64,000 bases of DNA from an uncultured Gammaproteobacteria bacterium (GTDB lineage: Bacteria > Pseudomonadota > Gammaproteobacteria > SZUA-229). The stretch covers positions 65,782 to 129,781 of the forward strand of contig CAVRHW010000031.1 in the NCBI GenBank assembly GCA_963721085.1, given 5' to 3'. The notes under the pieces were generated by a model. That model was not told the DNA's origin. It did not search any database and saw only the letters and a program-made list of their open reading frames with translations. The position numbers and the translations under genes are program-made. This document shows positions 1,072-14,886 of this stretch, one piece after another (the first letter of the stretch is position 1; the number at the start of each line of letters is the position of its first letter).

Positions 1072-2396
1072 CTCGCTGACAGAGTATCACGCATCGTGCG
1101 CAGCGCATCTCTGAAACGTTTCGGATCGAAGCGGTCTTCGTTGTCCAGCGTCCGGTAAAGCTCCTTGATTTCTTTTTTAATGCTGGCCTTGCGCGGATTG
1201 CTGAATGGCGCCATTTTGTCCCATGACACGGTCAGCGCACTGATCGCCATCGCAGCCTGTTCGGCAGCGACATAATTTCTGTACTCGCCCCAGACACCTT
1301 CATTCAGCAAACTCAGTGATATTTTCTGAATATCGTTTGCGCTGAACTTGTGTGGCATTATCTTCTCCTTGATCTCTTTTACCAGCGTCTGCATTTCACT
1401 CACTTTTTCATCCAGGGCCGCGTAACCCTCAGTCGAAGCAATATGCATTTCCTTGATCATGGTTTTAAGCTTCCATGCCAGCGCCGCATCGACTGGCACC
1501 GCAACGTTTCGCAGCATCAGCAAACTCGAATCATTAATGGTCACTACCCCCGGGCCAAGGCCGGTGCCGCGTCTTGGCGCCCAGGTTTTTTTCGACATGG
1601 AATGATGACAGCTCTGGCAATCGAACAGACTCAGTTCCGGGAACAGCTTGCCTGTTTGCATGCGATCACTTTTCAGCATTTTTAGCATTGCCTCGGCAGC
1701 GACCACCTGCCCAACCGCCCAGACCTTGACGTGGCTATACGCGATCTTGCGTTCACTATAATCCTTGTCCTGGACAAAATGTGGCGGCTGCAGTGCGCTG
1801 TAGGTATCCATCTCAAAGCTGATACGCGGATGGCCTGCGCCCATAATGTCATGACTGACAAACTGGTGCTTGTTGCCATAATGACATGACAGGCACACCC
1901 GGGTGCGCAGCACGATGTTGTCATTCGGATACAGGCCCTTCGCCACGTTATCTTTATGTGTGGCTTTTTTACTGGTGTGTGTTTTTAACCATTTCTCAGA
2001 ACCGCCGTGACATGCCTCACAACCGATACCGTCTTCTATGTGAAACTTTTTACCGCGAAATTTTTCGGCCACGTAGCTGGCATGGCAGACCAGGCAGGCA
2101 GGTTCTTTATAAGCCGGTTTCATCCCCAGTTTTGTCGTGATGTCAGTAAACTGTTTACCGAACATTTTTTTATACGACTGGCTGTGCGGATCTTTTCTTT
2201 CCCAGGTAATGTATTCGTTGTGCAAAATGTTCGAGTGCTGATAAGCCAGAACAGAACCATGGCAATTACTGCCCGCGCAGGTGGACACGCCTTCGTGCAC
2301 ATATCCGTCCTGCAGCGGCAATGGCGGCTCGCCTGCTGCGTGGCTTATTGTGCTGGTGAGCAGTAAAGCAAAACTGATGCATAGCTTATTTAGCAT
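1068..2396 (-). CDS. multihaem c-type cytochrome (4 CXXCH + 1 CX4CH) with helical C-terminal domain
   Basis: 442 aa. Signal peptide MLNKLCISFALLLTSTISHA. Haem motifs CAGSNCH, CLVCH, CEACH, CLSCH, CQSCH. The C-terminal ~170 aa are K/E-rich and helical, with no haem motif. The ATG overlaps the upstream stop by 11 nt. Confidence 0.85.
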   Translation of the reverse strand: MLNKLCISFALLLTSTISHAAGEPPLPLQDGYVHEGVSTCAGSNCHGSVLAYQHSNILHNEYITWERKDPHSQSYKKMFGKQFTDITTKLGMKPAYKEPACLVCHASYVAEKFRGKKFHIEDGIGCEACHGGSEKWLKTHTSKKATHKDNVAKGLYPNDNIVLRTRVCLSCHYGNKHQFVSHDIMGAGHPRISFEMDTYSALQPPHFVQDKDYSERKIAYSHVKVWAVGQVVAAEAMLKMLKSDRMQTGKLFPELSLFDCQSCHHSMSKKTWAPRRGTGLGPGVVTINDSSLLMLRNVAVPVDAALAWKLKTMIKEMHIASTEGYAALDEKVSEMQTLVKEIKEKIMPHKFSANDIQKISLSLLNEGVWGEYRNYVAAEQAAMAISALTVSWDKMAPFSNPRKASIKKEIKELYRTLDNEDRFDPKRFRDALRTMRDTLSAS

Positions 2397-5300
2397 TTGT
2401 CACCCTGTCGTTGACGGTCCAGACTTTTCCGTTTTTATCCAGATATAATTTCTGCATTTCCTCAAGAGTGAAAGGCCGGGAACCAAGACGCCCGAACACT
2501 GCGATCTGGTTGCCAGTTTCATCCACCGCCCGGTCACGATCAAGCCCCTTGGATAAGGACAGGGCCGGCGCGCCTGTCGGATAGGTCGCAATCAGTTGCG
2601 GGTGCGGTTGCGGACTAAAACCGTAGAAATCCGGCTGGCTGTCCGGCGATGTCATTTGCAGCACTTTCAGACCATTTTTACCGTCGGCAACATAACCGAT
2701 CAAACTGGCGTTTGTGGTCGCCACGATCACATCGCGCGCATCGTTTAATTTGCCGTCCGCGGTAAATAACTGCACCAGCTTCGGTTGCTCGGCTTTTTCA
2801 ACATCGATAATTGCAAGTCCCTGTTTACCAGCAGCGACATAGGCATAGGTCCGCGCCACATAAACACGGTGCGCATCTTTCAGTCTCACCAGCGCTCTGG
2901 TGATGCGCGGTTTGTCCGGATGGGTTACATCAACCACTTTCAGGCCATCTGCATCGGTGACGAACAGATATCTGAATTGCAGGCTGGTCGCGCGCGCTGT
3001 TTTGAGATTGATCACCGACGCCACTTTGGGTGCCAGTGGATTATCCAGATTGACTACCACGATACCGGCATCGGCTGCGATGTAAGCATAATAACCGCCG
3101 ATGGTGATATGTCGTGCGCCGTTCAGGATTCCGTTCGGGTTCCAGGTGAGCGCACGCTTGAGAAAATTATTACGCGCATCGCCATCGGCCATGGTATCTA
3201 CATTGGTTAAAATCAGCCCTTCCTTGCTATCGGTGATCAATGCGTAGTTATAGATGGGATGCATTGCCTGTTCTTCATCATCCACCCGCACGATCTTACG
3301 TGCATTGCGTACCGGATCGATCATCTGGTTTGTTGGCAACGCAATGCAGGTAGCATCACTGGTTTCTATATGTGTGTCGTGTCCAGCCGAGCTGTAAGGC
3401 GCGGTGATAATACGTTGCGCAACGCCCTTGTTGGCAATACTGGCAACATCGTATACCTGCACACCGTTCTTGCCCTGTGCTACGTATACATACTCGCCGC
3501 GTAACTGCAGACAGCGGGTCTCGCCGGAATCGTGCGTGTAGGCCTGCTTCAGTACCCGATTATTATCAAGGTGTTGTTGATAGAAATCCGGATACGCATA
3601 TTTCTGCAAATAGCTGCCGATCACTGCCTGCGGTTCATCCCATTCGGTCACGCGTACCGCTTCGATGTCCTGCTCGGTACCCACCCAGGCATTCAGGCCC
3701 ACAAAGTTGACAAAGTTGGTACCCAGCAATAACAACTGCGACATGATGGCATTGTTATCATCAGCATCCGAAATATGGCAATCGGTGCAGGTTTTTGTTT
3801 CTGTTAACCGTACAGTGTGTGGAAAATGCGGCGCGAAAGCCTGCGAACTAAAACCAGCGCTGGAAATGGGCGGCTGCTGCACATATATATGTTCACGATT
3901 GGCATTGGTCGATGACAGCACCAGCGCAGAGGATGATCGTACTGGCGCGATGCGACCGTCTTTTAACGGCCCGCGTTTGCCCAGCTGGAACATCTGGTCA
4001 CGCGCCACCTGTGGGTTATAAGTTGCGTAGTTCCGCGTCTCGCCACCTTCAAAATGCAGGCGCGGTGTTTTGTTGTTGGCTTCTATCGGCAGATGACAGC
4101 CGCCGCAACTGGTGGTCCATGAAGTATGACAGGAATAACATGTCATTTTGCTGTTGCTGTGCGCACGGTCCTTCGGTTTAACGCCCAGCCCCCAGGCCTG
4201 GGTGCTGGTGTTTGTGCTCATTAGTTTGGCGCGCGCGGATCGTGCATTGTAATGTTTACTTTTTGGATTCACCGCATCCTTGACCAGACTCATTTCCCAT
4301 TGCAGTCCTGGTGTCAGCATCGAGCGCTGGTACAGTTTTCCATTGATCCATTGAAAACGTTTTCTGCCATCGGGGTTGCGCAATAAAGTCAGATCGGTGC
4401 CACCGGGAGGGGCCGCCGGGCCCGAGGTGCGCAAACTGGGATACGCATCCGCAGTGCCATGGCAGTCCTTGCATGTGATCTCGACCGCAGCCGCGACTTC
4501 ACCGTGAATATTTCCGGTGCCATGACTGTCCTGTGCAAAATGGCAGTCAACACAATGCATGCCCTTGTCCATGTGAATCGACGCCATGTGCACGGCCTTG
4601 CGGAATTTATCCGGGTCCTTGTCATCCACGATCTTGCCATTCTTGTCGAGCAGATGGCCATGACGATCACGTTTGAACACCGCGCGGAAATTCCAGCCGT
4701 GGCCGTGATAATCCGCAAACTGGGTGTCTTTCAGTTCTGGATTCAGATCACGCACATTACGCAAAAAGGTTTCATCCGCCCATTTACCACGCGGCGCGGC
4801 GCCTTCCGGGTTGCGCTTGTAAACTTCACGCAGCTCGGCGGCGGTTGGATACTTCTGTTTTTTCGGCCACATGAACGGTGCATCGGATTCATAATCCCAC
4901 ATGGTGTAACCCATGAAGGTATTCATGAACATATTCGGCTGGTGCATGTGACAGGTCATGCACTGCGATGTCGGTATCGAACGCGTGAAGCTGTGCCTGA
5001 TCGGATGCCCTTCCTGGTGCTTCGGGATAGTAGGATCGATGGTCTCGGTAGTGCCGGTATGACCATCGATACTATACGGACCCGAATGTAACGGATCGCG
5101 ATCATTAGCGTATACGCTGTGGCAGCCTGCGCAACCCGATTGACGATAATCACCCGGCTGATCGTTGGTACCCATAAACCACATATGTGGATCATTCAAA
5201 CGTGTTTTGGTGAGATTGATCAGCGGTACCGCAATACGTCCCCCGGTGCCAGGGCCGCGATTGGACTGTTTAAAATCCGGGCGACCATCTTCTTCCAGTT

Positions 5301-6129
5301 TTTGCAATTCGCCTGATACGTTTGGAATACCGACTTCGGGAAATACATTGCCGAGGTTGCGGCCGCCATTTTCAAACACGCGGAAAATATCGGCAGGGGG
5401 CGTGACTTCCCAGGCAGGCAAAGGATAGAGCGCCGGCAGCACGCCTCGCGCCAGCATTTTTGCATCGGGCTCCTGCGGATTCAGGATCTCGGCAGGCGTG
5501 CCATCGCGCATATAGCTTTCACCCAGAATGTAATGCTTCAGCGGCAGGATGCCGTTGTTATAAGACGCGCCGCCCCAGAGCATCGCCGAGGTACTCATTA
5601 AACTACGTTTTGCCGCATCGATGATTTGCTGGTGACAGGCACCACAGGCTTCATCGGCGACACGGTAATCTGATGGATTAACAAAACGAACAAACTCGGG
5701 GCTTTCGCGATTCAACAAGGTGTAGCTGCTGCGCGGATTGGCACTCGACGGCAGATGCCAGGCATCAGGATAGCGCGGCAGCACATGCGCTTTTTCCATG
5801 GCCCGCAAATAAGCGACGTCTTTCTGTTTTGTGCCAGTCGGTTTTAATATCTTACTATCGCCGCCATGACAGTCGATACAGGCCAGGTTCACGTCTCCGC
5901 TTGGGTGCATCGTGGGCGAATCGGTTTTCGTGTGGCAACTCACACAACCCGTGTTTTTGGCGTCTACCTCTGCGGGCAACTGCGAAGCCGGTGCGTTCGG
6001 CGCAGTGACATAATGTCGCTCGACAGGATGTTCACCTTCCGATGCATAAACATTCATCACAGGCATTAGCAGGCCTATGCAGGCACAAAGCGCTAACCGT
6101 TTTAATACTATGTAAGTTCTATATTTCAT
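2386..6129 (-). CDS. decahaem c-type cytochrome fused to a C-terminal LVIVD-repeat beta-propeller
   Basis: 1247 aa with an N-terminal signal/anchor (LALCACIGLLMPVMNVYA). Ten CXXCH motifs: CVSCH, CIDCH, CGACH, CAGCH, CMTCH, CVDCH, CKDCH, CYSCH, CGGCH, CTDCH. The C-terminal ~430 aa carry repeated LVIVD-type blades (YVYVAQGKNGVQVYDV, YAYIAADAGIVVVNLDNP, YLFVTDADGLKVVDVTHP, YAYVAAGKQGLAIIDVEK, GYVADGKNGLKVLQM). Confidence 0.85.
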   Translation of the reverse strand: MKYRTYIVLKRLALCACIGLLMPVMNVYASEGEHPVERHYVTAPNAPASQLPAEVDAKNTGCVSCHTKTDSPTMHPSGDVNLACIDCHGGDSKILKPTGTKQKDVAYLRAMEKAHVLPRYPDAWHLPSSANPRSSYTLLNRESPEFVRFVNPSDYRVADEACGACHQQIIDAAKRSLMSTSAMLWGGASYNNGILPLKHYILGESYMRDGTPAEILNPQEPDAKMLARGVLPALYPLPAWEVTPPADIFRVFENGGRNLGNVFPEVGIPNVSGELQKLEEDGRPDFKQSNRGPGTGGRIAVPLINLTKTRLNDPHMWFMGTNDQPGDYRQSGCAGCHSVYANDRDPLHSGPYSIDGHTGTTETIDPTIPKHQEGHPIRHSFTRSIPTSQCMTCHMHQPNMFMNTFMGYTMWDYESDAPFMWPKKQKYPTAAELREVYKRNPEGAAPRGKWADETFLRNVRDLNPELKDTQFADYHGHGWNFRAVFKRDRHGHLLDKNGKIVDDKDPDKFRKAVHMASIHMDKGMHCVDCHFAQDSHGTGNIHGEVAAAVEITCKDCHGTADAYPSLRTSGPAAPPGGTDLTLLRNPDGRKRFQWINGKLYQRSMLTPGLQWEMSLVKDAVNPKSKHYNARSARAKLMSTNTSTQAWGLGVKPKDRAHSNSKMTCYSCHTSWTTSCGGCHLPIEANNKTPRLHFEGGETRNYATYNPQVARDQMFQLGKRGPLKDGRIAPVRSSSALVLSSTNANREHIYVQQPPISSAGFSSQAFAPHFPHTVRLTETKTCTDCHISDADDNNAIMSQLLLLGTNFVNFVGLNAWVGTEQDIEAVRVTEWDEPQAVIGSYLQKYAYPDFYQQHLDNNRVLKQAYTHDSGETRCLQLRGEYVYVAQGKNGVQVYDVASIANKGVAQRIITAPYSSAGHDTHIETSDATCIALPTNQMIDPVRNARKIVRVDDEEQAMHPIYNYALITDSKEGLILTNVDTMADGDARNNFLKRALTWNPNGILNGARHITIGGYYAYIAADAGIVVVNLDNPLAPKVASVINLKTARATSLQFRYLFVTDADGLKVVDVTHPDKPRITRALVRLKDAHRVYVARTYAYVAAGKQGLAIIDVEKAEQPKLVQLFTADGKLNDARDVIVATTNASLIGYVADGKNGLKVLQMTSPDSQPDFYGFSPQPHPQLIATYPTGAPALSLSKGLDRDRAVDETGNQIAVFGRLGSRPFTLEEMQKLYLDKNGKVWTVNDRVTNAK

Positions 6130-6207: not shown

Positions 6208-7950
6208 TTAATACCTGAACACAAAATTACCCAGCACGCTGTAATCCAGCGTATCGCCAAACATCTGTTTGTAGCCCTTGCCCGGTACCAGCACCGCGGC
6301 TGACAAACGCAGCACAATATTCTGGCTGTACAGGGGCCGATAAATACTGGCCAGCGAAACATCCCAGCCGATATCGTTGCTGATATTACCCTGATTCCGC
6401 GCTGCTTCGAGCACTGCGGTGTTATCAAACCAGAGATGATTAATATTGGTGGTGAGGCGCAATAATGGAGTCACGTCAAAATCCATTCCATAACCGATTA
6501 AACGTATGCCCGGGTTGGTAAAATTGGACTGCCCCTCTTCTTTTGAGGAACGCATCGAATTCAGCAGGCCGTTACGTCCCGACAGCGCAACACCACCGCC
6601 ACCAATATTGGCCACCGGCTGCCGAATCCAGAAACTGGTGTCCGCACCTGCAATCAGGGGATTTTCCAGAATCGAATCGAAACCGGTGGAGCGGTCATCG
6701 TAAGGATTTTTATCGCCACTACCGTATACCAGCGACAGGCGCGCACGAATCCAGTCGTAATCGCGGGCCAGTTCGGCCGCCGCAAAAAATGCGCTGATAC
6801 GTGATGGCTGAATACTGAAGGTACTGTGGTTTTCATTGCCGCTGACGTAATAAGTAGAAACACTAACATCAGTTCTACCAAAATGCCCGTCACCGTTATA
6901 CCCGAGATAAGTCACCTGGTATTCGCGCAACTGCTCGGTTCCGAGCGATGCCGGCCTGACCAGAAATCCGTTGTTGTCGTAATAATTATCTTTGTTCTCG
7001 CGATTGATGTTGTGTATCAACGACAGCTCAGAAGTGAAGCCAGGTGTCGGAAAATCCTGTCGATAAATATTCGCAACGAATACATCATCATCGCGCAGCG
7101 GTTTAGTCGTATCATTCAGTCCGCTGTTGGTGTCTTTTTCAATGCGGCGGAACCAGGCGATGTTGTACTGATAGATATTATTATCGCGGGTTCCAAAAAG
7201 GCGAATCCCGACCGGGTTGTCTATAAACAGGAAACCGCGAAAATCCGCGGTGAATGGTTGAACGCCTACACGCACACTGTCAAAGTCATAGCGCTCCGAA
7301 ACATTGCGCAAATGCTTGTCGATATACAGGTCCTGAATACCCACATGAGAATCCTGGCGCGTCTCACCCTGGTTGGGATCAATCGACAGAACGCGTAATT
7401 CCTCCGTGCGCACATAGTTTGAATTTACTACGGCAGTAAATCGGTATTCATAATCCGGTGGACGGAAAATGGTATCGCCCTTGTAATAATCTGCGCTGAT
7501 TATGAAGTTCTGGTTCAGCACCAGCTGGTCACCGCTGCCGATCACATCAATACTGCCGGGATTATTCGTGGTGGCAGGCCCCACCGGTGTCGGTAAACGC
7601 CGCGGCTCGATGACACTGTCAGAGATCAGTGACAGATCTAAAAACCAGTCATCATGAACTGGCTTATCGCCTTTCAGTGTGTTCTGGTGATAGGGGTCGT
7701 ACCAGTGTTCTTTGGTGACACCCAGGGTGTCGAGCAAACGCCAGCGATCGGGTACCGGTATCGACTCGCGTTTCAGATCAGGGCCCGGCGGTTCGATCGC
7801 ACCCGGATTATATACTGGTGCTGAACCCGAGGAACGTTCCGTGCTCGCACCCGGACGTTGCCGTTGCCAGTCATCATCTGCATGGCTTGCAGTCGCCGAT
7901 AATAAAATGGCGATGCTGATAGTTAATACGGATGCTCGCTTATTTACCAT
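6208..7950 (-). CDS. outer-membrane beta-barrel protein, function unknown
   Basis: This is the frame of ORF 6208..8091. My preferred start, ATG 7950, gives signal peptide MVNKRASVLTISIAILLSATASHA-DDDW. The sequence is long, rich in alternating-hydrophobic strands and in Y/F/W/G/N/D, and ends ...NFVFRY (aromatic C-terminus typical of OM barrels). The start overlaps the upstream stop by 11 nt. Confidence 0.7.
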   Translation of the reverse strand: MVNKRASVLTISIAILLSATASHADDDWQRQRPGASTERSSGSAPVYNPGAIEPPGPDLKRESIPVPDRWRLLDTLGVTKEHWYDPYHQNTLKGDKPVHDDWFLDLSLISDSVIEPRRLPTPVGPATTNNPGSIDVIGSGDQLVLNQNFIISADYYKGDTIFRPPDYEYRFTAVVNSNYVRTEELRVLSIDPNQGETRQDSHVGIQDLYIDKHLRNVSERYDFDSVRVGVQPFTADFRGFLFIDNPVGIRLFGTRDNNIYQYNIAWFRRIEKDTNSGLNDTTKPLRDDDVFVANIYRQDFPTPGFTSELSLIHNINRENKDNYYDNNGFLVRPASLGTEQLREYQVTYLGYNGDGHFGRTDVSVSTYYVSGNENHSTFSIQPSRISAFFAAAELARDYDWIRARLSLVYGSGDKNPYDDRSTGFDSILENPLIAGADTSFWIRQPVANIGGGGVALSGRNGLLNSMRSSKEEGQSNFTNPGIRLIGYGMDFDVTPLLRLTTNINHLWFDNTAVLEAARNQGNISNDIGWDVSLASIYRPLYSQNIVLRLSAAVLVPGKGYKQMFGDTLDYSVLGNFVFRY

Positions 7951-9868
7951 GGCAAACATCTGTTTCGGTTGAATCCAGGAACGGTGACTGCGGGCACTGC
8001 ACAAACCGCAGGTGTATACCCATTGGCGCAAGATTATCGGCGCGCATCGCTGCCGGTGCATTATTGATGGTGCCCAGTATTGCACTGGCATTGTTCAGGC
8101 CAAGAAATGAAACCATGTCATCCTGATCGACGCCATCGCCGGAAACACCAATGCCGCCGACCAGAATATTGCCACGATAAATCGGCACGCTACCTGGAAA
8201 CACCTGCATGCCATTGGCAAGTCGGCTCAGCGTGGTACAGTTTTGCGGCGCATCCGGGCCGCCACCTTTGACATAAACCACGTGCTGAATAACGCGGTTC
8301 ATCACCAGGTCAAGCTGCATACCGTCGGAAAACGGGCTCCATTCGCTGATCGGTTTGCTAAACGGGCCGTTGACCGAACCAACCGTGCCGTCCGGAAAAA
8401 ACGGGCGCGACAGATTGCCGCCGGAACGGTCGGCAAAGGCATATGCACCATCGGCCAGTGCGGTCGGTGCGCCGAGAAAATTTCGCACCGCAGACACATA
8501 ATCAGCAATGCTGATCTGGATGCCGCTCGGGCTCGCATCCGGATTTCTATAAATCGTGTTCGGTACCGCGCTCAGTTCAGCCGCGCCGTGGGTGCCGGAA
8601 AAAAAAGTTGCGGTGCGCGCTTTCTGCAGAGACACGTCGGTACCGAACACCGGGCCATCACGCGTGCGCGCAATACCCAGTATTTTGCCATTGGTATCAA
8701 CCACCGACACGGTGACGCGCGCCTGGCTGCCCAGCGGCCGGCGAATTTGTGAACGCGCGCGATTTGCGACTGCCAGCGCACTGCTGATCAGCTGTTTCAC
8801 TTCGCTGGCAGACAATGCATTCGCGCCATCACTGCCCGCAGTCGGCGGGAAGCGATTCACATTGCTGTTATCGACCAGCACAAAAGCATCCAGCCCGGGA
8901 TAATCAACCGGGTCTGCGCGTATCCCCGAATCGGGCTGACCAAAGGCCTTGCCATCGATCACTGCGCCTGCGGTATAACCGGTCACTGCCTGCAGACTGC
9001 CTGCACTGCCATCGATGCTGGCAAAACTGGGCGCATTGCCCGGCGTTGTCGCCAGGTCAGAAAAATCGACGTCAGAGAACCGCGCCACCTTGCCGTCCAG
9101 TGTAATCTTTTCTCTGCGATCAACCGGCGCGGCAAAACCATAACTGCCGGCGACTGCAATCAGTTCATCGATATTGCGATCGCGATCGTTGGTATTCAGA
9201 TCCAGTCCATAGACACCATCCGCAATCACACCAATACCACCGACCAGCGCGCCGTTTTTATATAAAGGCAGACCACCGGGGTCGGCGGACAAACCCAGCG
9301 GCGTGCGATGCGGTCCGGCATCTGCACCTGCGCTAAAGCGCGTATTCAGATCCGAACAGGGTAAATTACTGAACTGCACGCCGAACAAAGGGCCGCCCGG
9401 CTGGCCGGTTTCACCTGGATTAAAATGTTCCTGCACGATCTGGCTGGCGGTTCGCGTACTAAAGGCATTGCCTTCGGATGACAGATAGGCACCTGTCATC
9501 GCTTTTGAAATCGCGGCCAGGGTATCCGGGATCACATTGATGCCTTCCAGACCACCGCTGACATTGCGTCCCGAATCAATGGTGATATCGGTCGATGCCG
9601 AATTCATTCTGAATACCGCGAGCACGTTGCCCACGCGATCGACAACCGCAATGGTCCCCGCAACGCCCTGCGCCTGCGCTTCTGTCACCGCCTGAGCAAT
9701 AATGGTTTCGGTTTCGGCAACACTGAGAAAACTGCTGGCATTGGTGCAGCTACCGTTGCACTCTACTGCTCCCGCGCCGGTACCTGCTGTCGAATCACCA
9801 TTGCCACTGCTGCAGGAGAGCAGAACACTCAGCACACCAAAACAACCGGCTTTGAGAATGCTATTCAT
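7940..9868 (-). CDS. lipoprotein with two GlcG/HbpS-like (DUF336, haem-binding/degrading family) domains
   Basis: Frame of ORF 7940..9883. ATG at 9868 gives MNSILKAGCFGVLSVLLSC-SS (lipobox LLSC). There are two copies of the DUF336 signature: PLYKNGALVGGIGVIADG, and PIYRGNILVGGIGVSGDGVDQDDMVS preceded by VVDRVGNVLAVFRM / VVDTNGKILGIARTRDG. The start overlaps the upstream stop by 8 nt. Confidence 0.7.
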   Translation of the reverse strand: MNSILKAGCFGVLSVLLSCSSGNGDSTAGTGAGAVECNGSCTNASSFLSVAETETIIAQAVTEAQAQGVAGTIAVVDRVGNVLAVFRMNSASTDITIDSGRNVSGGLEGINVIPDTLAAISKAMTGAYLSSEGNAFSTRTASQIVQEHFNPGETGQPGGPLFGVQFSNLPCSDLNTRFSAGADAGPHRTPLGLSADPGGLPLYKNGALVGGIGVIADGVYGLDLNTNDRDRNIDELIAVAGSYGFAAPVDRREKITLDGKVARFSDVDFSDLATTPGNAPSFASIDGSAGSLQAVTGYTAGAVIDGKAFGQPDSGIRADPVDYPGLDAFVLVDNSNVNRFPPTAGSDGANALSASEVKQLISSALAVANRARSQIRRPLGSQARVTVSVVDTNGKILGIARTRDGPVFGTDVSLQKARTATFFSGTHGAAELSAVPNTIYRNPDASPSGIQISIADYVSAVRNFLGAPTALADGAYAFADRSGGNLSRPFFPDGTVGSVNGPFSKPISEWSPFSDGMQLDLVMNRVIQHVVYVKGGGPDAPQNCTTLSRLANGMQVFPGSVPIYRGNILVGGIGVSGDGVDQDDMVSFLGLNNASAILGTINNAPAAMRADNLAPMGIHLRFVQCPQSPFLDSTETDVCHGK

Positions 9869-11561
9869 TGTTCGTACGCACATCGCTGTTGCCCATCAGC
9901 AAAGTGTCGGGCTCATGAAATTTATGACAGGTAATACAGGTCGATGCCAGCTTGTCGCTACTATGCGCACCGCCGTGGCAGTCGCGACAGACCTTGATTC
10001 CTGGCAACAACACATCTTCACTGCTCTTTGACTCTTTCGCCTTATGGCAGTCTTCGCATTTTGAATTGCGATGCGCGCGATGATCAAATTCACCCTTGCT
10101 GAACCAGCGCTGCGAAATATGCACCTTTGGAATTCGCCAGCCATATTCTGCAGTCGGGTCACGCATCACCTTGTGGCACAGATTGCAGCTACGAAACTCG
10201 ATCACTTCTTCTTTAACATCGGCGGCCTTGTCTTTTGCCCAGGCCATCGCGGTTTTCATTTCTTTCGGTGTTAATGTTTTTCCCGGAATGCGTCTTTTCC
10301 TGACGATGTCGGGCGCCGGGAAATCGGTGTCCTGATAATTTCCCCTCAGCGCCATGAATGCGTAAAACTCATTTAACATCGAGGTCATGGTGCCCAGGTC
10401 GGCGTGAGGCAATTGTCGATCGGGAGCGTTCTGATCAAAGTCCAGGCGATGACATTCCTGACAGTGCACTTCCATCTGGATGGGCAGCATATAATTGCCA
10501 CTGGCATCGGTTTGATGACAGCTGCTGCAATTGAGCACCCGGTTTCCTGTCGGACTATCCACACCATTTACATCGAGATGCACCTTGTGTGAAAAAATCA
10601 GCCCGGTTTCCTGTTTAAGCCCGGGTGTATCCAGACTGACACGGTGCCACACCGGTTTACCGATACCCGGGTCGATATCAGTTAGCAGACGCGGCCGGAA
10701 CTCGACATGATGTTTTCCAAAATCTTCAATATCAGCCAGTTTTGTTTCTGTTAGCTTGCTCAAATGCTCATGACAGTTGCTGCATAAAGCCTGATCCTGT
10801 CTTACCAGAAATGCTGTGCCCTTGTGTTCCTGATGACAGTCGGTACAGCTGGCATGTGTTAATTGCCTGATATTGAATATCTCGGGGTCCGCATGTACCG
10901 TGACATCTTTATGGCATGCGAGACAGGCCGCGTTTTTTACTTTTTGAAATGGTTTTACATGGCAGGCATTGCAGTTACTGGCGAAATGTTTGTGCTGCGA
11001 ACTGATTTCACCACTCAGCCAGAGACCGTCATCAGGTGCAACCGGTATTTTGTGCAACAGCTTGCCTGTGTCCTGATTAAAAAATCCGGCCATAGGGACA
11101 ATAAGGCATAATAGCAATATCAGCACGAAGCCAGTCCAGGCAGCACGACGCCGACTTAACCAGGTGTCTTCCAGCTTTCTTGCCGTCTGGTGCTCACTCT
11201 GAACATCAACAATGTCGTCGTATACCTGCTCGACGGTAATGTCGATATCAATGGGTGCAGCGCCAGGTTCGACCGTAATCCTGTAAGGACCCACCTGTAT
11301 TTCGCCGCGCCCTTTGAACGAACCGCTTTGCGAAAAACGGCCGTTAACATGAAGCCCGGCCTTGCTCAGCGAAGTAACACCAACCTGGCCATTTCCCGCA
11401 ACGGTGAGCTGCGCGTGCTGGTAAGCCACACCCAGATCGGAAAGAAAAATGTCCTGGTCGGTCGCACGGCCGATACTGATGACCGCTTTATTGAGCACCT
11501 GTTCATTCTGAACAATTGTGCCTTTGCGTTTATGAACAATATGACGAATACGTGTTTGCAT
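9861..11561 (-). CDS. FHA-domain, single-pass membrane-anchored decahaem c-type cytochrome
   Basis: 566 aa. The N-terminal ~100 aa are FHA-like (ISIGRATDQDIFLSDLGVAYQHAQL...LHVNGR). A positive-inside TM follows (SRRRAAWTGFVLILLLCLIVPMAGFF). Then ten CXXCH motifs: CNACH, CLACH, CTDCH, CSNCH, CSSCH, CQECH, CNLCH, CEDCH, CRDCH, CITCH. Confidence 0.85.
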   Translation of the reverse strand: MQTRIRHIVHKRKGTIVQNEQVLNKAVISIGRATDQDIFLSDLGVAYQHAQLTVAGNGQVGVTSLSKAGLHVNGRFSQSGSFKGRGEIQVGPYRITVEPGAAPIDIDITVEQVYDDIVDVQSEHQTARKLEDTWLSRRRAAWTGFVLILLLCLIVPMAGFFNQDTGKLLHKIPVAPDDGLWLSGEISSQHKHFASNCNACHVKPFQKVKNAACLACHKDVTVHADPEIFNIRQLTHASCTDCHQEHKGTAFLVRQDQALCSNCHEHLSKLTETKLADIEDFGKHHVEFRPRLLTDIDPGIGKPVWHRVSLDTPGLKQETGLIFSHKVHLDVNGVDSPTGNRVLNCSSCHQTDASGNYMLPIQMEVHCQECHRLDFDQNAPDRQLPHADLGTMTSMLNEFYAFMALRGNYQDTDFPAPDIVRKRRIPGKTLTPKEMKTAMAWAKDKAADVKEEVIEFRSCNLCHKVMRDPTAEYGWRIPKVHISQRWFSKGEFDHRAHRNSKCEDCHKAKESKSSEDVLLPGIKVCRDCHGGAHSSDKLASTCITCHKFHEPDTLLMGNSDVRTNNE

Positions 11562-11575
11562 GCTCTATTCGCCAG

Positions 11576-12472
11576 CTACCAGTAGAAAAATACGGAAATA
11601 ATATGCGCAATCAATGCCGCAAGCAGCGCAAATGACAGGGGCACATGAATGTACAGCCAGAGATCAAGATAGGCTTTATACTGCATATCACGACGTAGCT
11701 GCTCAACCAGGCGCTCTTTCTGGCCAATCAATAAATCAGTGAGCTGCAACATCGTCGCGCCGGTGTCGTCACTTTCTTTTGCAATACGGCTCGCCATAAA
11801 CGCCATGGTGCTATCAAGATCGCGTTTCTCCATTTTTTCCTGCTGATATTTTGCTTCCTGCACCAGCCCCTGCAGATCATCCGATTTTTTGCTGCCAAAC
11901 ACGATGTCAAAAACACTGCCGCCGAGACGCGTGCGCTGAATACTTTTCAACACGCGTTCGTGGGTTTCGGGATTAATTTCGCTGGCCAGCACAAGTGCCT
12001 GTCGGTCGATGTCCTGTATCTGGCGAATTAAAGAGTCGGGTGAAGATTCGCCACGGTTGTCGGTCATCAATGTCGGAAAATGCAGGTAACAATAAACGCC
12101 GTAAATGCCACTGAAAATAACCAGCATCATCAGCACGTAGGCCAGGGTGTGAACATTCCAGCCAAACTGGAACCCGGTGTGCAAGGTCGCGAGCACGATC
12201 AGCGCCAGCCCGAGATACACATGCGCCGACAACCAGCCCGCAGCGGTGCCCATGCTGGAGCGATAGCGACGTTTGCGTATACCGAACCACATCAACCAGA
12301 CAATCAATAACGCCGATATCGTGCCCAGGGTGTAACCCAGCCAGGTGCCGCCATTCGGCGGCATGGTGGGATTATCCAGCGCATAGGCCAGAATAGCGCC
12401 TGTGCACAGCGCCACGCTCCACCAGAGATAGCGCGAGCCACGGTAACTGAGGATTGTCTGGTGCATCGCCAT
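11576..12472 (-). CDS. integral membrane protein with two His-x13-His helices (candidate dihaem b-type transmembrane electron carrier)
   Basis: Frame of ORF 11576..12589. ATG at 12472 lies 2 nt after the upstream stop. I read about five hydrophobic helices. One is SAHVYLGLALIVLATLHTGF and another is YIHVPLSFALLAALIAHIISVFFYW, each with His at i and i+14. A ~120-aa polar loop lies between helices 4 and 5. Confidence 0.7.
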   Translation of the reverse strand: MAMHQTILSYRGSRYLWWSVALCTGAILAYALDNPTMPPNGGTWLGYTLGTISALLIVWLMWFGIRKRRYRSSMGTAAGWLSAHVYLGLALIVLATLHTGFQFGWNVHTLAYVLMMLVIFSGIYGVYCYLHFPTLMTDNRGESSPDSLIRQIQDIDRQALVLASEINPETHERVLKSIQRTRLGGSVFDIVFGSKKSDDLQGLVQEAKYQQEKMEKRDLDSTMAFMASRIAKESDDTGATMLQLTDLLIGQKERLVEQLRRDMQYKAYLDLWLYIHVPLSFALLAALIAHIISVFFYW

Positions 12473-12474
12473 GT

Positions 12475-14886
12475 TTATGAGCGCCCTGCGTAGTTCGCCA
12501 GCTGATCCGGCTTGATGCGTATCGCGGCACCGGTCGGGCAGGCGCGCACACAGGCCGCACCACCGCTGAGGTCTTTGCACATATCGCACTTCACTGCTTT
12601 TTTCACCGCCTCGCTATCTTTTTTGCCATAGCCTTTGGGCGCCTGGCCGGGGCCGGGGCCAATACCGAACAACAACCATGGGATCAGGCCCGGTTTTTTC
12701 GGTGGCTTTGTCGCCATCTGGATCACACCGTAGGGACAGTTGCGCTGACAGTTACCGCATCCGATACAGTTATCGGCAACATACACTTCGCCGTCGGGCG
12801 CACGCTTGATCGCATCGGGAGGACAATCCTTCATGCAGTGCGGATGCTCGCAATGACGACATGAAGTCGGCACATGAATCGCCGCATAGGTGGGGCCGGC
12901 TTCACGATCCAGCCGCGAGGTTCCATCGTGCGTTTCCGCGCAGGCTTTTTCACAATTGTCGCAACGAATGCACAGGGACTCATCGATCAATAATACATCG
13001 GTGGCTTCGCCAACCCCCTGGCTGACCAGGAAGGAAATAATGCTGTTGCCACCCTGCTGCTGCATGCGCAGATTATTTGAAACACGCTGCTTGTATTCTT
13101 TTTCGATGTTGCGCCTGAGCGCCTCATCCTGTTCGAGCAGATAACGAAACTCATCCGCGCCCAGTTCGATGGTTTCGGTCGCCGTGGCTGCGCGCACGGT
13201 TGCCGTACGGCGGCTTTTACCCATGATGCCCATTTCACCAACATAGTTGCCCGCGGGCAGATACGACATCACCACTTCGTGTTCGCCAAGACGGCGCGAA
13301 ATTGTTACCGATCCTCGCCGGATCACATGAAAGCTTTCTGCTTCATCGCCTTCATTAAACAATACTTCACCAGCGCGATATGACTGCAGTTTTGCCTTTT
13401 TGGCAATTGTTGCCAGGCTCTGAATCGGTGTGGTATTGGCAAATCGCGTCTGCAGGGTGCGCACAATAAACGCTTCGTCAATCGTGCGCTTCACCGACTC
13501 GACAGAGCTGATCAATTTATTCATCGAGCGCCGAGGCGTTTCGATCAACACACATTTTTTGCCTGCGCGTATGGTTGCCGAGCGACGACGACCAGACAAT
13601 AAACTCATTTCACCGAAAAACTGGCCCGGGGTTAACGCAATTGTTTTGTCAGGATCGTTCTCATCGATTTCAATCAGCACTTCACCGCTGATAATGCAGA
13701 AAAATGTATTGGTGTAATCATTTTTACGAAAAATATAATCGCCCGGGGAAGCAACATATATTTCACTGTCGAGAAAAAACTCACGTAACTGCAGAACCGT
13801 GAGGCCAGAAAGCAACGGCACTATCTTTCTGATTGAGCGTAATGCCTGGTTTACTGCGGGCTTGCCGGGTATTTTTTCAAACCGCGCCTTAAGCAAAGGC
13901 TCGTCTGCGGGCTCGACCGGATTGCCCTCAATGTATTCGACAACTTCGTATCCCTGGTTCATACATTGCTTGATCAGGGGGTAGCCGCCCAGCGCACCAA
14001 TAATATAAATGCCGGGCACATTGCTTTCGTATTGATCGGACAACTCGGGCACTGCACCGATATCTGCATTCGGAAAACGAATGCCGCAGGATTCAATGAA
14101 CTTGCGCGGCGGAATCGCGCCAAGACGTGCGATGATGCGATCGAAAGGCACTTCCGCTTCGCCTTCGGGTGTTTCCAGCACCAGTACGGCTTTTTGCGCG
14201 GCACCTTCGGGGCTCTGTTCGATGCGTACCGAATTGGCCTGATAAAAACATTCGATCACGCCTTTTTCGATCTTGTCGAGTATCGCGGCATTGTTCGCTT
14301 CCTTGGCGCGGGTGAACTCGGGCTGGCGATTCACTATATATACCGTATTGTGGCCACATAGCGCGAGCGCGTTTTCGATACCGGCATCGCCGCCGCCAAT
14401 GACAACAATATGTTCATCTTCGTATTCGTCAGGATCGTCCAGGGTGTATTGCACCAGTGGCGCTGCTTCCCCGGGAATACACAGCATACGTGGATTTCCC
14501 TGCACCCCCACGGCCAGAACGATATGCTCGGCGCGGATGGTTTCACCCTGTTTCAGGCTGATTTCGAATCCACCCTTGCTGCCACTGATCGCCGAAACTT
14601 CAGCATTGCATTTGAGATTGACCCGATGCGTGTCGATTCCGTGTTGCCAGGTATCCAGGACTTCTTCTCGTTTGGCGGCGGTGAACTTGATCGGACTGCG
14701 CAGCGGCAGCACACGCGGTTCGTCCATCACGTGCTTGCCTTTCTGGTAGTGGAATATGGTGTTACAGATATGAGGTTCAGCTTCGAGCAATATATGGTTA
14801 ATGCCCAGTTCTGCGGCACGTGAAGCCGCGCTCAGGCCACCGGGGCCCGAACCGATGATGGCGATTCGATAGTTGTTACCACCCAT
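12475..14886 (-). CDS. fusion protein: FAD/NAD(P)-binding pyridine-nucleotide-disulfide-oxidoreductase-like domain + two cyclic-nucleotide-binding domains + four-cluster [4Fe-4S] ferredoxin domain
   Basis: 803 aa.
- N-terminus: IAIIGSGPGGLSAA (dinucleotide fold) and a second GGGDAGIENA.
- Two cNMP signatures: FGEMSLLSGRRRSATIRA and VGEMGIMGKSRRTATVRA.
- C-terminal cluster motifs: CIRCDNCEKAC, CRHCEHPHCMKDCP, CIGCGNCQRNCP, CDMCKD...CVRACP.
- No signal peptide or TM. Confidence 0.85.
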   Translation of the reverse strand: MGGNNYRIAIIGSGPGGLSAASRAAELGINHILLEAEPHICNTIFHYQKGKHVMDEPRVLPLRSPIKFTAAKREEVLDTWQHGIDTHRVNLKCNAEVSAISGSKGGFEISLKQGETIRAEHIVLAVGVQGNPRMLCIPGEAAPLVQYTLDDPDEYEDEHIVVIGGGDAGIENALALCGHNTVYIVNRQPEFTRAKEANNAAILDKIEKGVIECFYQANSVRIEQSPEGAAQKAVLVLETPEGEAEVPFDRIIARLGAIPPRKFIESCGIRFPNADIGAVPELSDQYESNVPGIYIIGALGGYPLIKQCMNQGYEVVEYIEGNPVEPADEPLLKARFEKIPGKPAVNQALRSIRKIVPLLSGLTVLQLREFFLDSEIYVASPGDYIFRKNDYTNTFFCIISGEVLIEIDENDPDKTIALTPGQFFGEMSLLSGRRRSATIRAGKKCVLIETPRRSMNKLISSVESVKRTIDEAFIVRTLQTRFANTTPIQSLATIAKKAKLQSYRAGEVLFNEGDEAESFHVIRRGSVTISRRLGEHEVVMSYLPAGNYVGEMGIMGKSRRTATVRAATATETIELGADEFRYLLEQDEALRRNIEKEYKQRVSNNLRMQQQGGNSIISFLVSQGVGEATDVLLIDESLCIRCDNCEKACAETHDGTSRLDREAGPTYAAIHVPTSCRHCEHPHCMKDCPPDAIKRAPDGEVYVADNCIGCGNCQRNCPYGVIQMATKPPKKPGLIPWLLFGIGPGPGQAPKGYGKKDSEAVKKAVKCDMCKDLSGGAACVRACPTGAAIRIKPDQLANYAGRS

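Follow-up and report, generated by a model that had tools for sequence, protein, structure and literature searches.

Gene cluster and domain architecture

The window, i.e., the whole stretch of 64,000 nucleotides that was analysed, holds a cluster of seven closely packed genes (overlaps or gaps of 2–78 nt), whose synteny extends as far as SAR86 (34% identity) and Sphingobium (30%), the flanking genes being unrelated. The genes, and the parts of the cytochrome under study, are the following:

12475..14886, (−) strand: soluble flavo-iron-sulfur protein, 803 aa (Pfam; synteny in all FHA-positive loci)
11576..12472, (−) strand: 5-TM protein, 298 aa, candidate dihaem cytochrome b (His pattern, sub-threshold PF01292)
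9861..11561, (−) strand: FHA/single-TM/decahaem cytochrome c gene, 566 aa, start codon ATG
11226..11561, (−) strand: predicted cytoplasmic FHA domain, residues 1–112 (PF00498, GarA alignment, AlphaFold2, Foldseek, column frequencies)
11154..11225, (−) strand: linker, residues 113–136, predicted disordered and poorly conserved (pLDDT, pairwise identity)
11079..11153, (−) strand: lone TM helix, residues 137–161, positive-inside (hydropathy, model helix, invariant columns)
9906..11036, (−) strand: predicted periplasmic decahaem domain, residues 176–552 (CXXCH, distal His, Pfam c7/c3 families)
7940..9868, (−) strand: HbpS-like/GlcG lipoprotein, about 642 aa (PF03928 74.3 bits, 4 stretches; syntenic)
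6208..7953, (−) strand: porin-like protein, about 581 aa (signal peptide, C-terminal ...FVFRY, syntenic homologues of 580–603 aa)
2386..6129, (−) strand: decahaem-LVIVD cytochrome, 1247 aa (ten CXXCH; LVIVD 54.7 bits; c3/c7 matches; syntenic)
1068..2396, (−) strand: c554-like cytochrome, 442 aa, the last gene of the cluster (four CXXCH and one CX4CH, signal peptide, syntenic)

CXXCH occurs exactly ten times in the 566-aa protein (residues 197, 213, 239, 260, 345, 367, 459, 502, 525 and 542), which exceeded the Pfam cut-offs for Cytochrome_C7, Cytochrom_c3_2, Cytochrom_CIII and Paired_CXXCH_1; a search of the PDB found no sequence relative of the decahaem domain. Nine candidate distal histidines (H190, H246, H285, H325, H328, H386, H494, H497 and H549) are invariant among homologues and a tenth, H223, is at least 90% conserved; their number equals that of the CXXCH motifs, which implies bis-His electron-transfer haems. 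The only hydrophobic segment lies at 143–161 and was modelled by AlphaFold2 as a helix spanning 137–161; it is preceded by SRRR, and R138 and P156 are invariant among homologues. The N-terminus has no signal peptide, an FHA β-strand beginning at residue 3. Attachment of c-type haem is periplasmic, and from this and the sequence features it follows that the protein would be oriented N-in/C-out. A preliminary description of the locus had proposed this same architecture, with an N-terminal FHA domain on the cytoplasmic side of a single positive-inside TM helix and ten haems beyond it, and the present analysis agrees with it on each of these points. Between the two domains, the linker has pLDDT values below 50 at residues 115–130 in the AlphaFold2 model and a mean pairwise identity of 0.24, lower than in the FHA domain (0.37) and the haem domain (0.44). 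The architecture is the same in 155 homologues with 33–98% identity, the FHA domain is kept in all 63 of 63 aligned homologues, and ten CXXCH motifs together with the N-terminal domain were found in 115 of 115 full-length gammaproteobacterial and 119 of 120 sphingomonad sequences.

The 803-aa protein combines an FAD/NAD(P) domain of the pyridine-nucleotide-disulfide type (Pyr_redox_3, 115 bits) and two cNMP-binding domains (cNMP_binding, 132.7 bits, 2 stretches) with a C-terminal domain bearing four Cys-cluster motifs, at 639, 676, 707 and 767, and Fer4_7/Fer4_11 matches; hydropathy revealed no TM segment in it. The gene for the 5-TM protein starts 2 nt past the upstream stop, its start being fixed by 298-aa homologues (one 100% identical), and the FHA gene begins 14 nt past its stop. 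Two H-x13-H pairs are present in the 5-TM protein, H84/H98 on TM3 and H276/H290 on TM5, and these four histidines are invariant in 39 of 39 sequences, including those from Bacteroidales, Thermodesulfobacteriota and Betaproteobacteria. Matches to PF01292 (cytochrome b561) were obtained for 48 of 52 members of the 5-TM family, all of them below the cut-off (best E 3.4e-8), and the weak AlphaFold model (pLDDT 66) found no structural or sequence relatives in the PDB; the protein is considered a candidate dihaem cytochrome b. Its conserved cytoplasmic loop, roughly 130 aa long, includes residues that are invariant in the FHA-positive clade. The start of the HbpS-like lipoprotein gene overlaps the end of the FHA gene, and the lipoprotein, in which the HbpS-like/GlcG domain is repeated, has an LLSC lipobox-like N-terminus, with M6 of the listed ORF as the probable start. 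The protein of about 581 aa matched no Pfam family and is a candidate outer-membrane β-barrel, and the 1247-aa decahaem-LVIVD protein, whose LVIVD repeats are of the β-propeller type, is a candidate outer or extracellular component.

The FHA domain and its phosphothreonine contacts

The N-terminal domain, which the preliminary description had recognised as FHA from its residue pattern, matched PF00498 in Pfam with 33.4 bits (cut-off 20.7, E 6e-8, residues 28–78), and GarA/Rv1827 was retrieved by phmmer against the PDB at E about 9e-7. The AlphaFold2 model has about 11 strands, with pLDDT above 90 over most of residues 1–110 (10-residue block means of 84–95), and all 50 of the 50 PDB matches listed by Foldseek were FHA domains, e.g., OdhI, GarA, EmbR and Ki67, the best having target TM-scores of 0.64–0.72 at prob 1.00. 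In the window protein, Ala46 aligns with the phosphate-binding Ser (S95 of GarA) and Ala68 with the peptide-binding Asn (N117 of GarA). Column frequencies were obtained from 235 family members, comprising the gamma clade (115) and the sphingomonads (120), and the only near-invariant FHA columns were G31, R32, D42 and H49; the conserved loop residues are G31-R32, T34-D35-Q36, D42 and H49. At position 46 the gamma clade has A/S/P/R and the sphingomonads have E/T/D/A, with Ser in 36 of the 235 members (15%); position 47, canonically basic or Asn, is L/Y or P across the family, and the canonical Asn at position 68 is absent from all 235. Judged from these columns, the FHA domain has lost most of its phosphothreonine-binding residues.

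Proposed conduit and alternative roles of the FHA domain

It is tentatively proposed, with a likelihood rated as somewhat short of even, that the cluster encodes a trans-envelope electron conduit in which the FHA domain serves as a module for docking or assembly that needs no phosphorylation. In the soluble 803-aa protein, the FAD would oxidise NAD(P)H, the four Fe-S clusters would relay the electrons, and the inner membrane would be crossed via two stacked b-haems held by the four invariant histidines of the 298-aa protein. The ten bis-His c-haems of the FHA-decahaem cytochrome would then receive the electrons and pass them onward to the HbpS-like lipoprotein, the porin-like protein and the outer multihaem proteins; the reverse direction would be equally possible. 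In the cytoplasm, the FHA domain, flexibly tethered by about 25 residues, would most likely secure to the membrane complex either the soluble flavo-Fe-S subunit or the long loop that the candidate cytochrome b exposes to the cytoplasm, the contact surface being the conserved apical loops (G31-R32-x-T-D-Q ... H49), where Arg32 may bind a carboxylate as in OdhI/GarA on their enzyme targets. Docking onto neighbouring gene products, which the preliminary description had offered in a phospho-dependent form, remains the best idea, though probably in a phospho-independent one. Precedents for such docking are OdhI/GarA and SctD, described below. The near-invariant Arg32 would equally be retained by a phosphate binder, and this counts against the proposal, as do the Ser kept at position 46 by 36 of the 235 members and the genuine phosphothreonine binding of OdhI/GarA. 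The visible regulatory input is the pair of cNMP-binding domains and not a Ser/Thr kinase.

The distribution of the partner proteins was compared between loci with and without the FHA domain. The FAD/Fe-S partner is soluble and of about 800 aa in nine of nine FHA-positive loci, whereas about 14 FHA-negative relatives combine a cytochrome bearing a signal peptide and 20–24 haems with an Fe-S/FAD partner (430–451 aa) that carries an N-terminal TM helix of its own. The FHA cytochrome described from Ferrigenium likewise neighbours a 4Fe-4S protein that has no TM helix. The FHA-negative relatives belong to Betaproteobacteria, Bacteroidales and Thermodesulfobacteriota, with 21–24 haems in the betaproteobacterial loci L006–L013, and the co-occurrence of FHA with a soluble partner represents two or three phylogenetically independent contrasts. 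Between the two classes, the FAD proteins share only about 30% identity and differ in domain order, so that the FHA domain has not simply taken the place of a membrane anchor.

Alternatively, the FHA domain might be a self-association or scaffold module, oligomerising the cytochrome as in SctD rings, or it might bind only the 5-TM loop and so stabilise the membrane complex without recruiting the electron donor, the flavo-Fe-S subunit being left unbound in either case. From the N-terminal FHA across one TM helix to the periplasmic domain, the topology is that of SctD and GltG, whose NCBIfam models gave weak matches, and the FHA domains of SctD work without phosphothreonine; the score for PF16697 is near the threshold (30.4 vs 33.2 bits), and the loop of the 298-aa protein has the invariant residues noted above. 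This score is nevertheless under the cut-off, no sign of oligomerisation was found, and the loop occurs in FHA-negative relatives too, so that it cannot account for FHA occurring only with soluble partners; the scaffold role is considered unlikely.

The preliminary description had coupled the FHA domain, as a phosphothreonine reader, to Ser/Thr-kinase signalling. Were it a working reader, a Hanks-type kinase and a phosphatase would be encoded elsewhere, and phosphorylation of a partner, or of the cytochrome's own linker, would let the FHA domain gate assembly or electron flow. Consistent with this are the Pfam match above the cut-off, the genuine phosphothreonine binding of OdhI and GarA, the nearest relatives in sequence and structure, the near-invariant phosphate-binding Arg and structural His, and the Ser at position 46 in 36 of the 115 gamma-clade members. 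However, Ser is replaced by Ala in the window protein and mostly by Glu, Asp, Thr or Ala in the sphingomonads, an acidic residue there being one that would repel phosphate; the next residue is Leu, Tyr or Pro, and the canonical Asn is missing throughout. In agreement with the preliminary description, a motif scan and tblastn with one kinase and one PP2C revealed neither a Ser/Thr kinase nor a PP2C in the window, and none was detected in nine syntenic FHA-positive loci with ±10 kb flanks, save for a single truncated Pkinase ORF at the extreme end of locus L023, about 9.6 kb off. This ORF, at roughly 10 kb, could be read in favour of a reader, but it is not conserved in synteny, and it is a separate, canonical FHA domain in L022 (GR, VSSEH, STNG) that adjoins both a kinase and a PP2C. 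With Ala46, Ala68 and no Asn in any member, the signalling claim is not supported, and a working reader is regarded as distinctly improbable.

Least probable of all is a CymA/NapC-like oxidoreductase linking periplasmic or outer-membrane redox partners to the quinone pool, with FHA in an accessory regulatory role and an electron path that bypasses the flavo-Fe-S and 5-TM proteins; such a role would fit the CymA/NrfH-like succession of one TM helix and a periplasmic multihaem domain, and was proposed for the FHA nonahaem cytochrome of Ferrigenium (bioRxiv 10.64898/2026.01.22.701106), but NapC/NirT is unmatched in Pfam and NCBIfam, matches to QrcA, DmsE and MtrC are far below their cut-offs, every haem site lies at least 35 residues past the membrane helix, and strict synteny and close packing with the candidate dihaem b and the four-cluster Fe-S protein offer a simpler, quinone-independent path.

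Comparison with known systems

The closest FHA domains by sequence and fold are those of OdhI and GarA, actinobacterial regulators of 2-oxoglutarate dehydrogenase, GDH and GOGAT, whose targets are large redox or metabolic enzymes. With the apical FHA face they bind OdhA/KGD via a phosphomimetic Asp, the Ser being dispensable, but they are small, soluble proteins that retain Ser and Asn and are inactivated when a kinase phosphorylates their own N-terminal tail, and the NCBIfam OdhI model gave only 31 bits (cut-off 200) for the window protein. SctD (YscD/PrgH/PscD, type III secretion) and GltG (Myxococcus gliding) are similar as bitopic inner-membrane proteins of trans-envelope machines, in which a single TM helix joins a cytoplasmic N-terminal FHA fold to a periplasmic domain. 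The FHA domain of SctD, which is without the phosphothreonine-binding Ser, docks the soluble cytoplasmic SctK with no need for phosphorylation; SctD also lacks the Arg that is near-invariant in the window family, the NCBIfam SctD and GltG scores fall far below their cut-offs, as the PF16697 score falls slightly below its own, and the periplasmic part of the window protein is a multihaem cytochrome instead of ring-building domains.

In FdnH-FdnI/HybA-type modules and in NOX/ferric-reductase flavocytochromes, an Fe-S chain or FAD feeds two membrane-stacked b-haems held by paired histidines. The window cluster resembles these systems in its Fer4_11-type Cys motifs, PF01292-like matches (below the cut-off) and H-x13-H pairs, but its Fe-S domain is predicted to be cytoplasmic and shares a polypeptide with an NAD(P)H/FAD domain and cNMP sensors, its b-type candidate crosses the membrane 5 times and carries its His on TM3 and TM5, and its proposed acceptor is a multihaem c wire, not quinone or O2. 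The MtrCAB/CymA conduits share multihaem c cytochromes with it and also match its candidate outer-membrane barrel-like protein, its large decahaem protein, a candidate outer component, and its proposed logic of electron transfer across the envelope; the DmsE/MtrA and OmcA/MtrC NCBIfam models, however, gave 21–23 bits (cut-offs 192–209), no NapC/CymA family match was found for the window protein, and entry at the inner membrane appears to be by NAD(P)H/Fe-S/haem b instead of quinol.

The FHA-multihaem fusion is already known and widespread, with more than 1,700 database relatives, including cultured Sphingobium. A 10-haem 'Forkhead-associated protein' was listed in the 2023 Gallionellaceae pangenome (PMC9900912), and an FHA-bearing nonahaem cytochrome, 'NHC', of Ferrigenium straubiae was described in a 2026 preprint (bioRxiv 10.64898/2026.01.22.701106). 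Compared by description, both share the cytosolic FHA domain, single TM helix and periplasmic multihaem domain, and NHC also adjoins genes for a 5-TM protein and for a 4Fe-4S protein lacking both signal peptide and TM helix; it differs in having nine haems instead of ten, although nine-haem variants are also among the representatives matched by the window's FHA and TM segment, and in its betaproteobacterial host and unlike neighbourhood (nirK, SHP). Similarly, PtdE-PtdF-PtdG of the ptdABCDEFG operon (2024; bioRxiv 10.1101/2023.11.21.568154), also compared by description, resemble the window genes, with a cNMP-binding/4Fe-4S protein, a membrane protein and a decahaem protein in the same order, and PtdF, the counterpart of the 5-TM protein, was independently called 'ferric reductase-like' there. 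The ptd cluster also includes a porin and tetra/pentahaem proteins, and its hosts include marine Alpha- and Gammaproteobacteria. In contrast to the window, its FAD oxidoreductase PtdC is a separate gene (locus L005 carries a split version of the FAD/Fe-S fusion), a pentahaem protein with a β-sandwich is listed whereas the 1247-aa decahaem-LVIVD protein and the HbpS-like lipoprotein are not, and PtdG is called periplasmic, with an FHA domain or membrane anchor never mentioned.

Architecture of the FHA-decahaem cytochrome

The FHA-decahaem protein is a real and conserved feature, encoded within a cluster of seven minus-strand genes that are tightly packed, with overlaps or gaps of 2–78 nt.

Genes of the cluster (coordinates in the window, strand, product)
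12475..14886, minus: 803-aa soluble protein, combining an FAD/NAD(P) domain of the pyridine-nucleotide-disulfide type with two cNMP-binding domains
11576..12472, minus: 298-aa protein with five TM helices
9861..11561, minus: FHA-decahaem gene, ORF with an ATG start, 566 aa
7940..9868, minus: lipoprotein with four HbpS-like/GlcG stretches
6208..7953, minus: signal-peptide protein of ~581 aa, no Pfam match, C-terminal FVFRY
2386..6129, minus: 1247-aa protein with ten CXXCH motifs and LVIVD repeats
1068..2396, minus: c554-like cytochrome with four CXXCH motifs and one CX4CH motif

Exactly ten CXXCH motifs were located in the 566-aa protein (residues 197, 213, 239, 260, 345, 367, 459, 502, 525 and 542), and all thirty of their Cys/Cys/His positions were found to be invariant in an alignment of 63 sequences. 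Additional His residues were likewise invariant in these sequences (H190, H246, H285, H325, H328, H386, H494, H497 and H549) or, in the case of H223, conserved in at least 90%; these ten conserved extra His residues provide ten candidate distal ligands, matching the expectation for ten bis-His electron-transfer haems. The Pfam profiles Cytochrome_C7, Cytochrom_c3_2, Cytochrom_CIII and Paired_CXXCH_1 each scored above their cut-offs, and the protein has the attributes of a multihaem cytochrome c of the c3/c7 superfamily, with predicted haem attachment in an exported domain. No sequence relatives of the haem domain were found in the PDB. The FHA profile search and structure prediction proposed in the preliminary description both returned an FHA domain at the N-terminus. 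The Pfam FHA profile PF00498 matched residues 28–78 with 33.4 bits (cut-off 20.7, E 6e-8), and GarA/Rv1827 was aligned with the same domain at E ~9e-7. With the family alignment as input, AlphaFold2 gave a model of mean pLDDT 82.7 (above 90 across most of residues 1–110) that presented about eleven strands in the FHA part, a disordered linker (115–130) and a helix (137–161). When the FHA model was compared with the PDB by Foldseek, all 50 of the matches listed, with OdhI and GarA at the top, were FHA domains; the N-terminal domain is modelled as an eleven-stranded FHA beta-sandwich. The combination of FHA domain, TM helix and ten haems noticed in the preliminary description is thereby upheld.

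The sole hydrophobic segment of the protein lies at residues 143–161, with SRRR just before it and with R138 invariant, and the FHA strand starts at residue 3, so that a signal peptide is absent. Haem c attachment is periplasmic. Because of the single hydrophobic segment, the SRRR motif, the missing signal peptide and the side of haem attachment, a topology with the N-terminus inside and the C-terminus outside is soundly predicted, in agreement with the earlier placement of the FHA in the cytoplasm and of the haems in the periplasm.

Phosphothreonine-contact residues of the FHA domain

In canonical FHA domains the phosphate is contacted by an Arg of the beta3-beta4 loop and a Ser of the beta4-beta5 loop, and the peptide backbone is held by an Asn of the beta6-beta7 loop. 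Alignment with GarA showed that its GR motif is retained in the 566-aa protein; GarA 'VSRRH' is replaced by 'VAYQH' (S95 to A46 and R96 to Y47), and 'SLNGT' by 'SKAGL' (N117 to A68). Residue frequencies were then determined for 235 homologues, 115 gammaproteobacterial and 120 sphingomonad. The canonical Arg is kept, with G31-R32 present in 234/235 homologues, and G31, R32, D42 and H49 were near-invariant in both the gamma clade and the sphingomonads, while T34-D35-Q36, directly after the Arg, was invariant in the gamma clade. Position 46, that of the canonical Ser, was occupied in the gamma clade by Ala (36), Ser (36), Pro (26) and Arg (10), and in sphingomonads by Glu (62), Thr (21), Asp (12) and Ala (10); position 47 is Leu or Tyr in the gamma clade and Pro in sphingomonads. 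The canonical Ser and the basic or Asn residue that follows it are missing from the FHA-decahaem protein, and Asn at position 68, the canonical Asn column, was found in none of the 235 homologues. The domain was present in all 63 aligned members and was more conserved than the linker (mean pairwise identity of 0.37, compared with 0.24 in the linker and 0.44 in the haem domain); it is thus maintained by selection, with conserved canonical binding loops and a non-canonical residue set.

As the preliminary description had stated, no Ser/Thr kinase or phosphatase gene is visible in the window, where neither a Hanks kinase nor a PP2C was found within the 64 kb. A scan of nine syntenic loci and their ±10-kb flanks detected no kinase or PP2C either, the exception being one truncated Pkinase ORF at the far edge of locus L023. 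A Sideroxydans locus (L022) served as positive control, its textbook FHA (GR, VSSEH, STNG) being directly preceded by genes for a kinase and a PP2C. This locus was rejected as a case of an FHA cytochrome beside a kinase, the protein being a canonical FHA protein devoid of haem motifs in the part covered. Canonical phosphothreonine reading is therefore unlikely to be the conserved function of this FHA. The earlier proposal that the domain, as a phosphothreonine reader, joins the cytochrome to Ser/Thr-kinase signalling is weakened by the sequence evidence, and with it the aspect that gave the finding its appeal. A CHASE2-type Ser/Thr kinase homologous to that of L022 was also observed in the betaproteobacterial loci L006–L009, L012 and L013 (at ~18.6–21.1 kb), ~7–9 kb downstream of a multihaem gene that lacks the FHA; this probably reflects neighbourhood conservation and not a functional link.

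The membrane and soluble partners

The family of the 298-aa protein comprises at least ~8,000 matches, mostly annotated 'hypothetical'. Four His residues, H84/H98 in TM3 and H276/H290 in TM5, each pair spaced as H-x13-H, were invariant in 39/39 sequences of an alignment that reached out to distant relatives in Bacteroidales, Thermodesulfobacteriota and Betaproteobacteria. From the RKRRYR loop, the turn between TM2 and TM3 is placed on the cytoplasmic side; each of the two helices would then bring one His close to either membrane face, as is classical for a pair of b-haems stacked through a membrane. The profile PF01292 (prokaryotic cytochrome b561 / Ni_hydr_CYTB) scored 22.7 bits with the window protein (cut-off 30.1). 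Of 52 members of the family, 48 gave a match at E <= 0.01, the best at 3.4e-8, but none reached the gathering score. The corresponding protein of the ptd operon, PtdF, has independently been described as 'ferric reductase-like' (bioRxiv 10.1101/2023.11.21.568154). The AlphaFold2 model of the 298-aa protein reached a pLDDT of only 66; Foldseek with this weak model gave nothing below E 0.6, and a PDB profile search gave nothing relevant. As the structure comparison yielded no match, the assignment is drawn from the His pattern and the sub-threshold PF01292 matches, which indicate that the protein likely represents an unrecognised family of dihaem cytochromes b.

The 803-aa protein is devoid of TM segments, has Cys-cluster motifs at four places (639, 676, 707 and 767) and presents the features of an unusual redox enzyme in which an NAD(P)H/FAD oxidoreductase is combined with a four-cluster Fe-S domain and built-in cNMP sensors. 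The HbpS-like lipoprotein is possibly a haem- or corrinoid-binding periplasmic component, and the product of 6208..7953 looks like an outer-membrane barrel from its sequence; both were observed to be strictly syntenic with the cytochromes. A promoter and terminator scan of the cluster gave counts at or below chance.

Synteny and the FHA-less module

The whole cluster was found to be syntenic on a 324-kb metagenome contig (53% identity), on SAR86 contigs (34% identity) and in Gammaproteobacteria and Stenotrophobium MAGs, with unrelated flanks in each case. In the cultured Sphingobium herbicidovorans MH it is carried by the 959-kb plasmid pMSHV as two opposed operons (30% identity), again between unrelated flanking genes; proteins of this strain are WP_231568103, WP_037469326 and WP_037469325. 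On pMSHV the genes for the flavo-Fe-S, 5-TM and FHA-cytochrome proteins are flanked by two metallophosphoesterase genes (locus L026, 5704..6447 and 13821..14669), one of them directly downstream of the FHA cytochrome; the window has no equivalent. Their products could be protein phosphatases, or else phosphodiesterases that act on cyclic nucleotides and so match the cNMP domains. In a Gammaproteobacteria MAG (L005, 5828..8251) the flavo-Fe-S partner is divided into a 401-aa FAD ORF and a 389-aa cNMP/Fe-S ORF, in resemblance to the ptd operon, where PtdC and PtdE are separate proteins; the division could be genuine or the product of a frameshift. A 436-aa 2Fe-2S / FAD_binding_6 / NAD_binding_1 oxidoreductase, encoded in the window at 19726..21036 (plus strand), ~5 kb upstream of the cluster, might be the counterpart of the flavohaemoprotein-like PtdC; its gene showed no conservation among the syntenic loci examined.

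The trio of FAD/Fe-S oxidoreductase, 5-TM protein and multihaem cytochrome also exists without an FHA, in ~14 loci from Betaproteobacteria, Bacteroidales and one Thermodesulfobacteriota MAG.

FHA-less trio (database loci)
L006, 7493..11725
L017, 7627..11518
also L007–L009 and L012–L021

In these loci the same 5-TM protein with His pairs is encoded, the cytochrome has an ordinary signal peptide and 20–24 haems, the Fe-S/FAD partner is a protein of 430–451 aa with an N-terminal TM helix, and further large multihaem proteins often come next. In all nine FHA-positive loci and in the window, the cytochrome consists of FHA, one TM helix and ten haems, and the partner is soluble, with ~800 aa (two ORFs in L005). 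The same pairing was reported for the Ferrigenium FHA cytochrome (bioRxiv 10.64898/2026.01.22.701106). This correlation, which amounts to just two or three independent contrasts, fits an FHA that tethers a partner lacking its own anchor in the membrane. Between the two classes, the FAD proteins share only ~30% identity and differ in domain order.

Proposed mechanism

Electrons would pass from NAD(P)H to FAD, through four Fe-S clusters to the cytoplasmic-side and then the periplasmic-side haem b, and on to the ten c-haems, from which the lipoprotein, the porin and the outer multihaem proteins would be reached; the reverse direction is also possible. The FHA, on a ~25-residue disordered tether to the TM helix, would serve, independently of phosphorylation, as a docking module for the flavo-Fe-S subunit or else for the cytoplasmic loop of 130 aa (residues 135–265) in the b-type protein. 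Such docking is plausible because of two precedents: OdhI/GarA, the closest relatives, bind OdhA/KGD at the apical FHA face via a phosphomimetic Asp, the Ser being dispensable, and the bitopic SctD docks SctK through an N-terminal cytoplasmic FHA without phosphothreonine. For the present cluster, a docking role is something that we only infer. Within the cluster, no regulatory input is obvious apart from the two cNMP domains. A tentative and rather doubtful extension would make the cluster a quinone-independent, cyclic-nucleotide-gated 'bacterial NOX-like' wire, with the FHA as the clamp that recruits the soluble dehydrogenase. Such a wire would start at cytoplasmic NAD(P)H, pass over Fe-S clusters and two b-haems to more than 20 c-haems, and end outside the cell; aerobes such as SAR86 and Sphingobium might use it, for example, to acquire iron reductively or for extracellular redox chemistry. 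If true, the FHA would here serve respiratory-type electron transfer in a new way that does not depend on phosphorylation.

Previous reports and significance

The fusion of an FHA with a multihaem cytochrome is not new to databases or literature, and the window protein belongs to a family that had been noticed before but is uncharacterised. Members are labelled 'FHA domain-containing protein' or 'cytochrome c3 family protein' by NCBI/UniRef. A search with the Sphingobium member returned 1,748 proteins at E <= 1e-5, and 877 of the 50%-identity representatives matched the FHA and TM segment alone at E <= 1e-3. Among the best 150 of these 877, 87 were at least 500 aa long, 65 of them with ten CXXCH motifs and 6 with nine, and the family spans at least 70 clusters at 50% identity. 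A 10-haem 'Forkhead-associated protein' was recorded in 27 genomes in the 2023 Gallionellaceae pangenome (PMC9900912), and a Ferrigenium FHA-nonahaem cytochrome (IMG 28784098774) with the same two neighbours was described in 2026, in a preprint that declared the association of FHA and multihaem previously unreported (bioRxiv 10.64898/2026.01.22.701106). The ptdABCDEFG operon was named in 2024, with the domain content and order of E-F-G as in the window; that preprint makes no mention of an FHA or membrane anchor on PtdG, of which PWN55205 and MBT5131322 are examples (bioRxiv 10.1101/2023.11.21.568154). Function was assayed in none of the three papers. New, as far as found, are the family-wide loss of phosphothreonine-contact residues, the invariance of four His residues in the 298-aa partner, the four-cluster Fe-S domain of the 803-aa partner, the correlation between FHA and soluble partner, and the occurrence of the cluster in cultured sphingomonads.

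If the model is true, the cluster would allow extracellular electron transfer without passage through the quinone pool, taking electrons straight from NAD(P)H via the flavo-Fe-S protein and the dihaem b, in hosts not usually thought electroactive, namely abundant aerobic marine SAR86 and common soil sphingomonads. After type III secretion, this would be another case in which an FHA on a bitopic protein fastens a cytoplasmic module to a machine that spans the envelope, the machine here being one that moves electrons. The occurrence of the family in cultured, genetically accessible Sphingobium makes this mechanistically attractive system testable.

Other features of the window

Isoleucyl-tRNA synthetase is encoded in two plus-strand ORFs (42328..43275 and 43620..45158) separated by ~345 nt and matching positions 2–185 and 207–413 of Pfam tRNA-synt_1, which suggests a frameshift or assembly error in an essential gene. 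The ORF at 22343..22936 (minus strand) matches only positions 128–271 of the 327-position AI-2E transporter profile and is possibly truncated or frameshifted. Three minus-strand ORFs of 261–341 aa (47897..48682, 49115..49900 and 56531..57556) gave no Pfam match at E <= 1e-5, and one of them is adjoined by a weak VWA-domain ORF (50013..51161).

Comparison with known systems

Membership in MtrCAB, CymA/NapC, QrcA, Hmc and Tmc was rejected, profile scores being absent or far under cut-off: MtrA/DmsE TIGR03508 gave 20.9 bits (cut-off 192.2), MtrC/OmcA TIGR03507 gave 22.9 (cut-off 209.3), and no NapC/NirT match for a quinol dehydrogenase was obtained in Pfam or NCBIfam at E <= 1. The first CXXCH motif of the 566-aa protein sits 36 residues past the TM helix. 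The SAR86 and 'Uet' literature on Tenderiales and the Woeseiaceae EET papers were found to be unrelated to the cluster, and none of the organisms named for PtdG or the Ferrigenium FHA-nonahaem cytochrome was among the database matches listed. Compared by description, the PtdE-F-G order (cNMP/4Fe-4S, ferric-reductase-like TM protein, decahaem) equals that of the 803-, 298- and 566-aa proteins, and the window trio is followed by porin-like and multihaem proteins, like the porin-cytochrome setting of the ptd operon. SctD/YscD has the same topology as the FHA-decahaem protein, but the scores for membership lie below cut-off (PF16697, 30.4 vs 33.2 bits; TIGR02500, 11.8 vs 86). In its contact residues, the FHA-decahaem family stands midway between GarA and SctD, the Arg being kept as in GarA and the Ser lost as in SctD.
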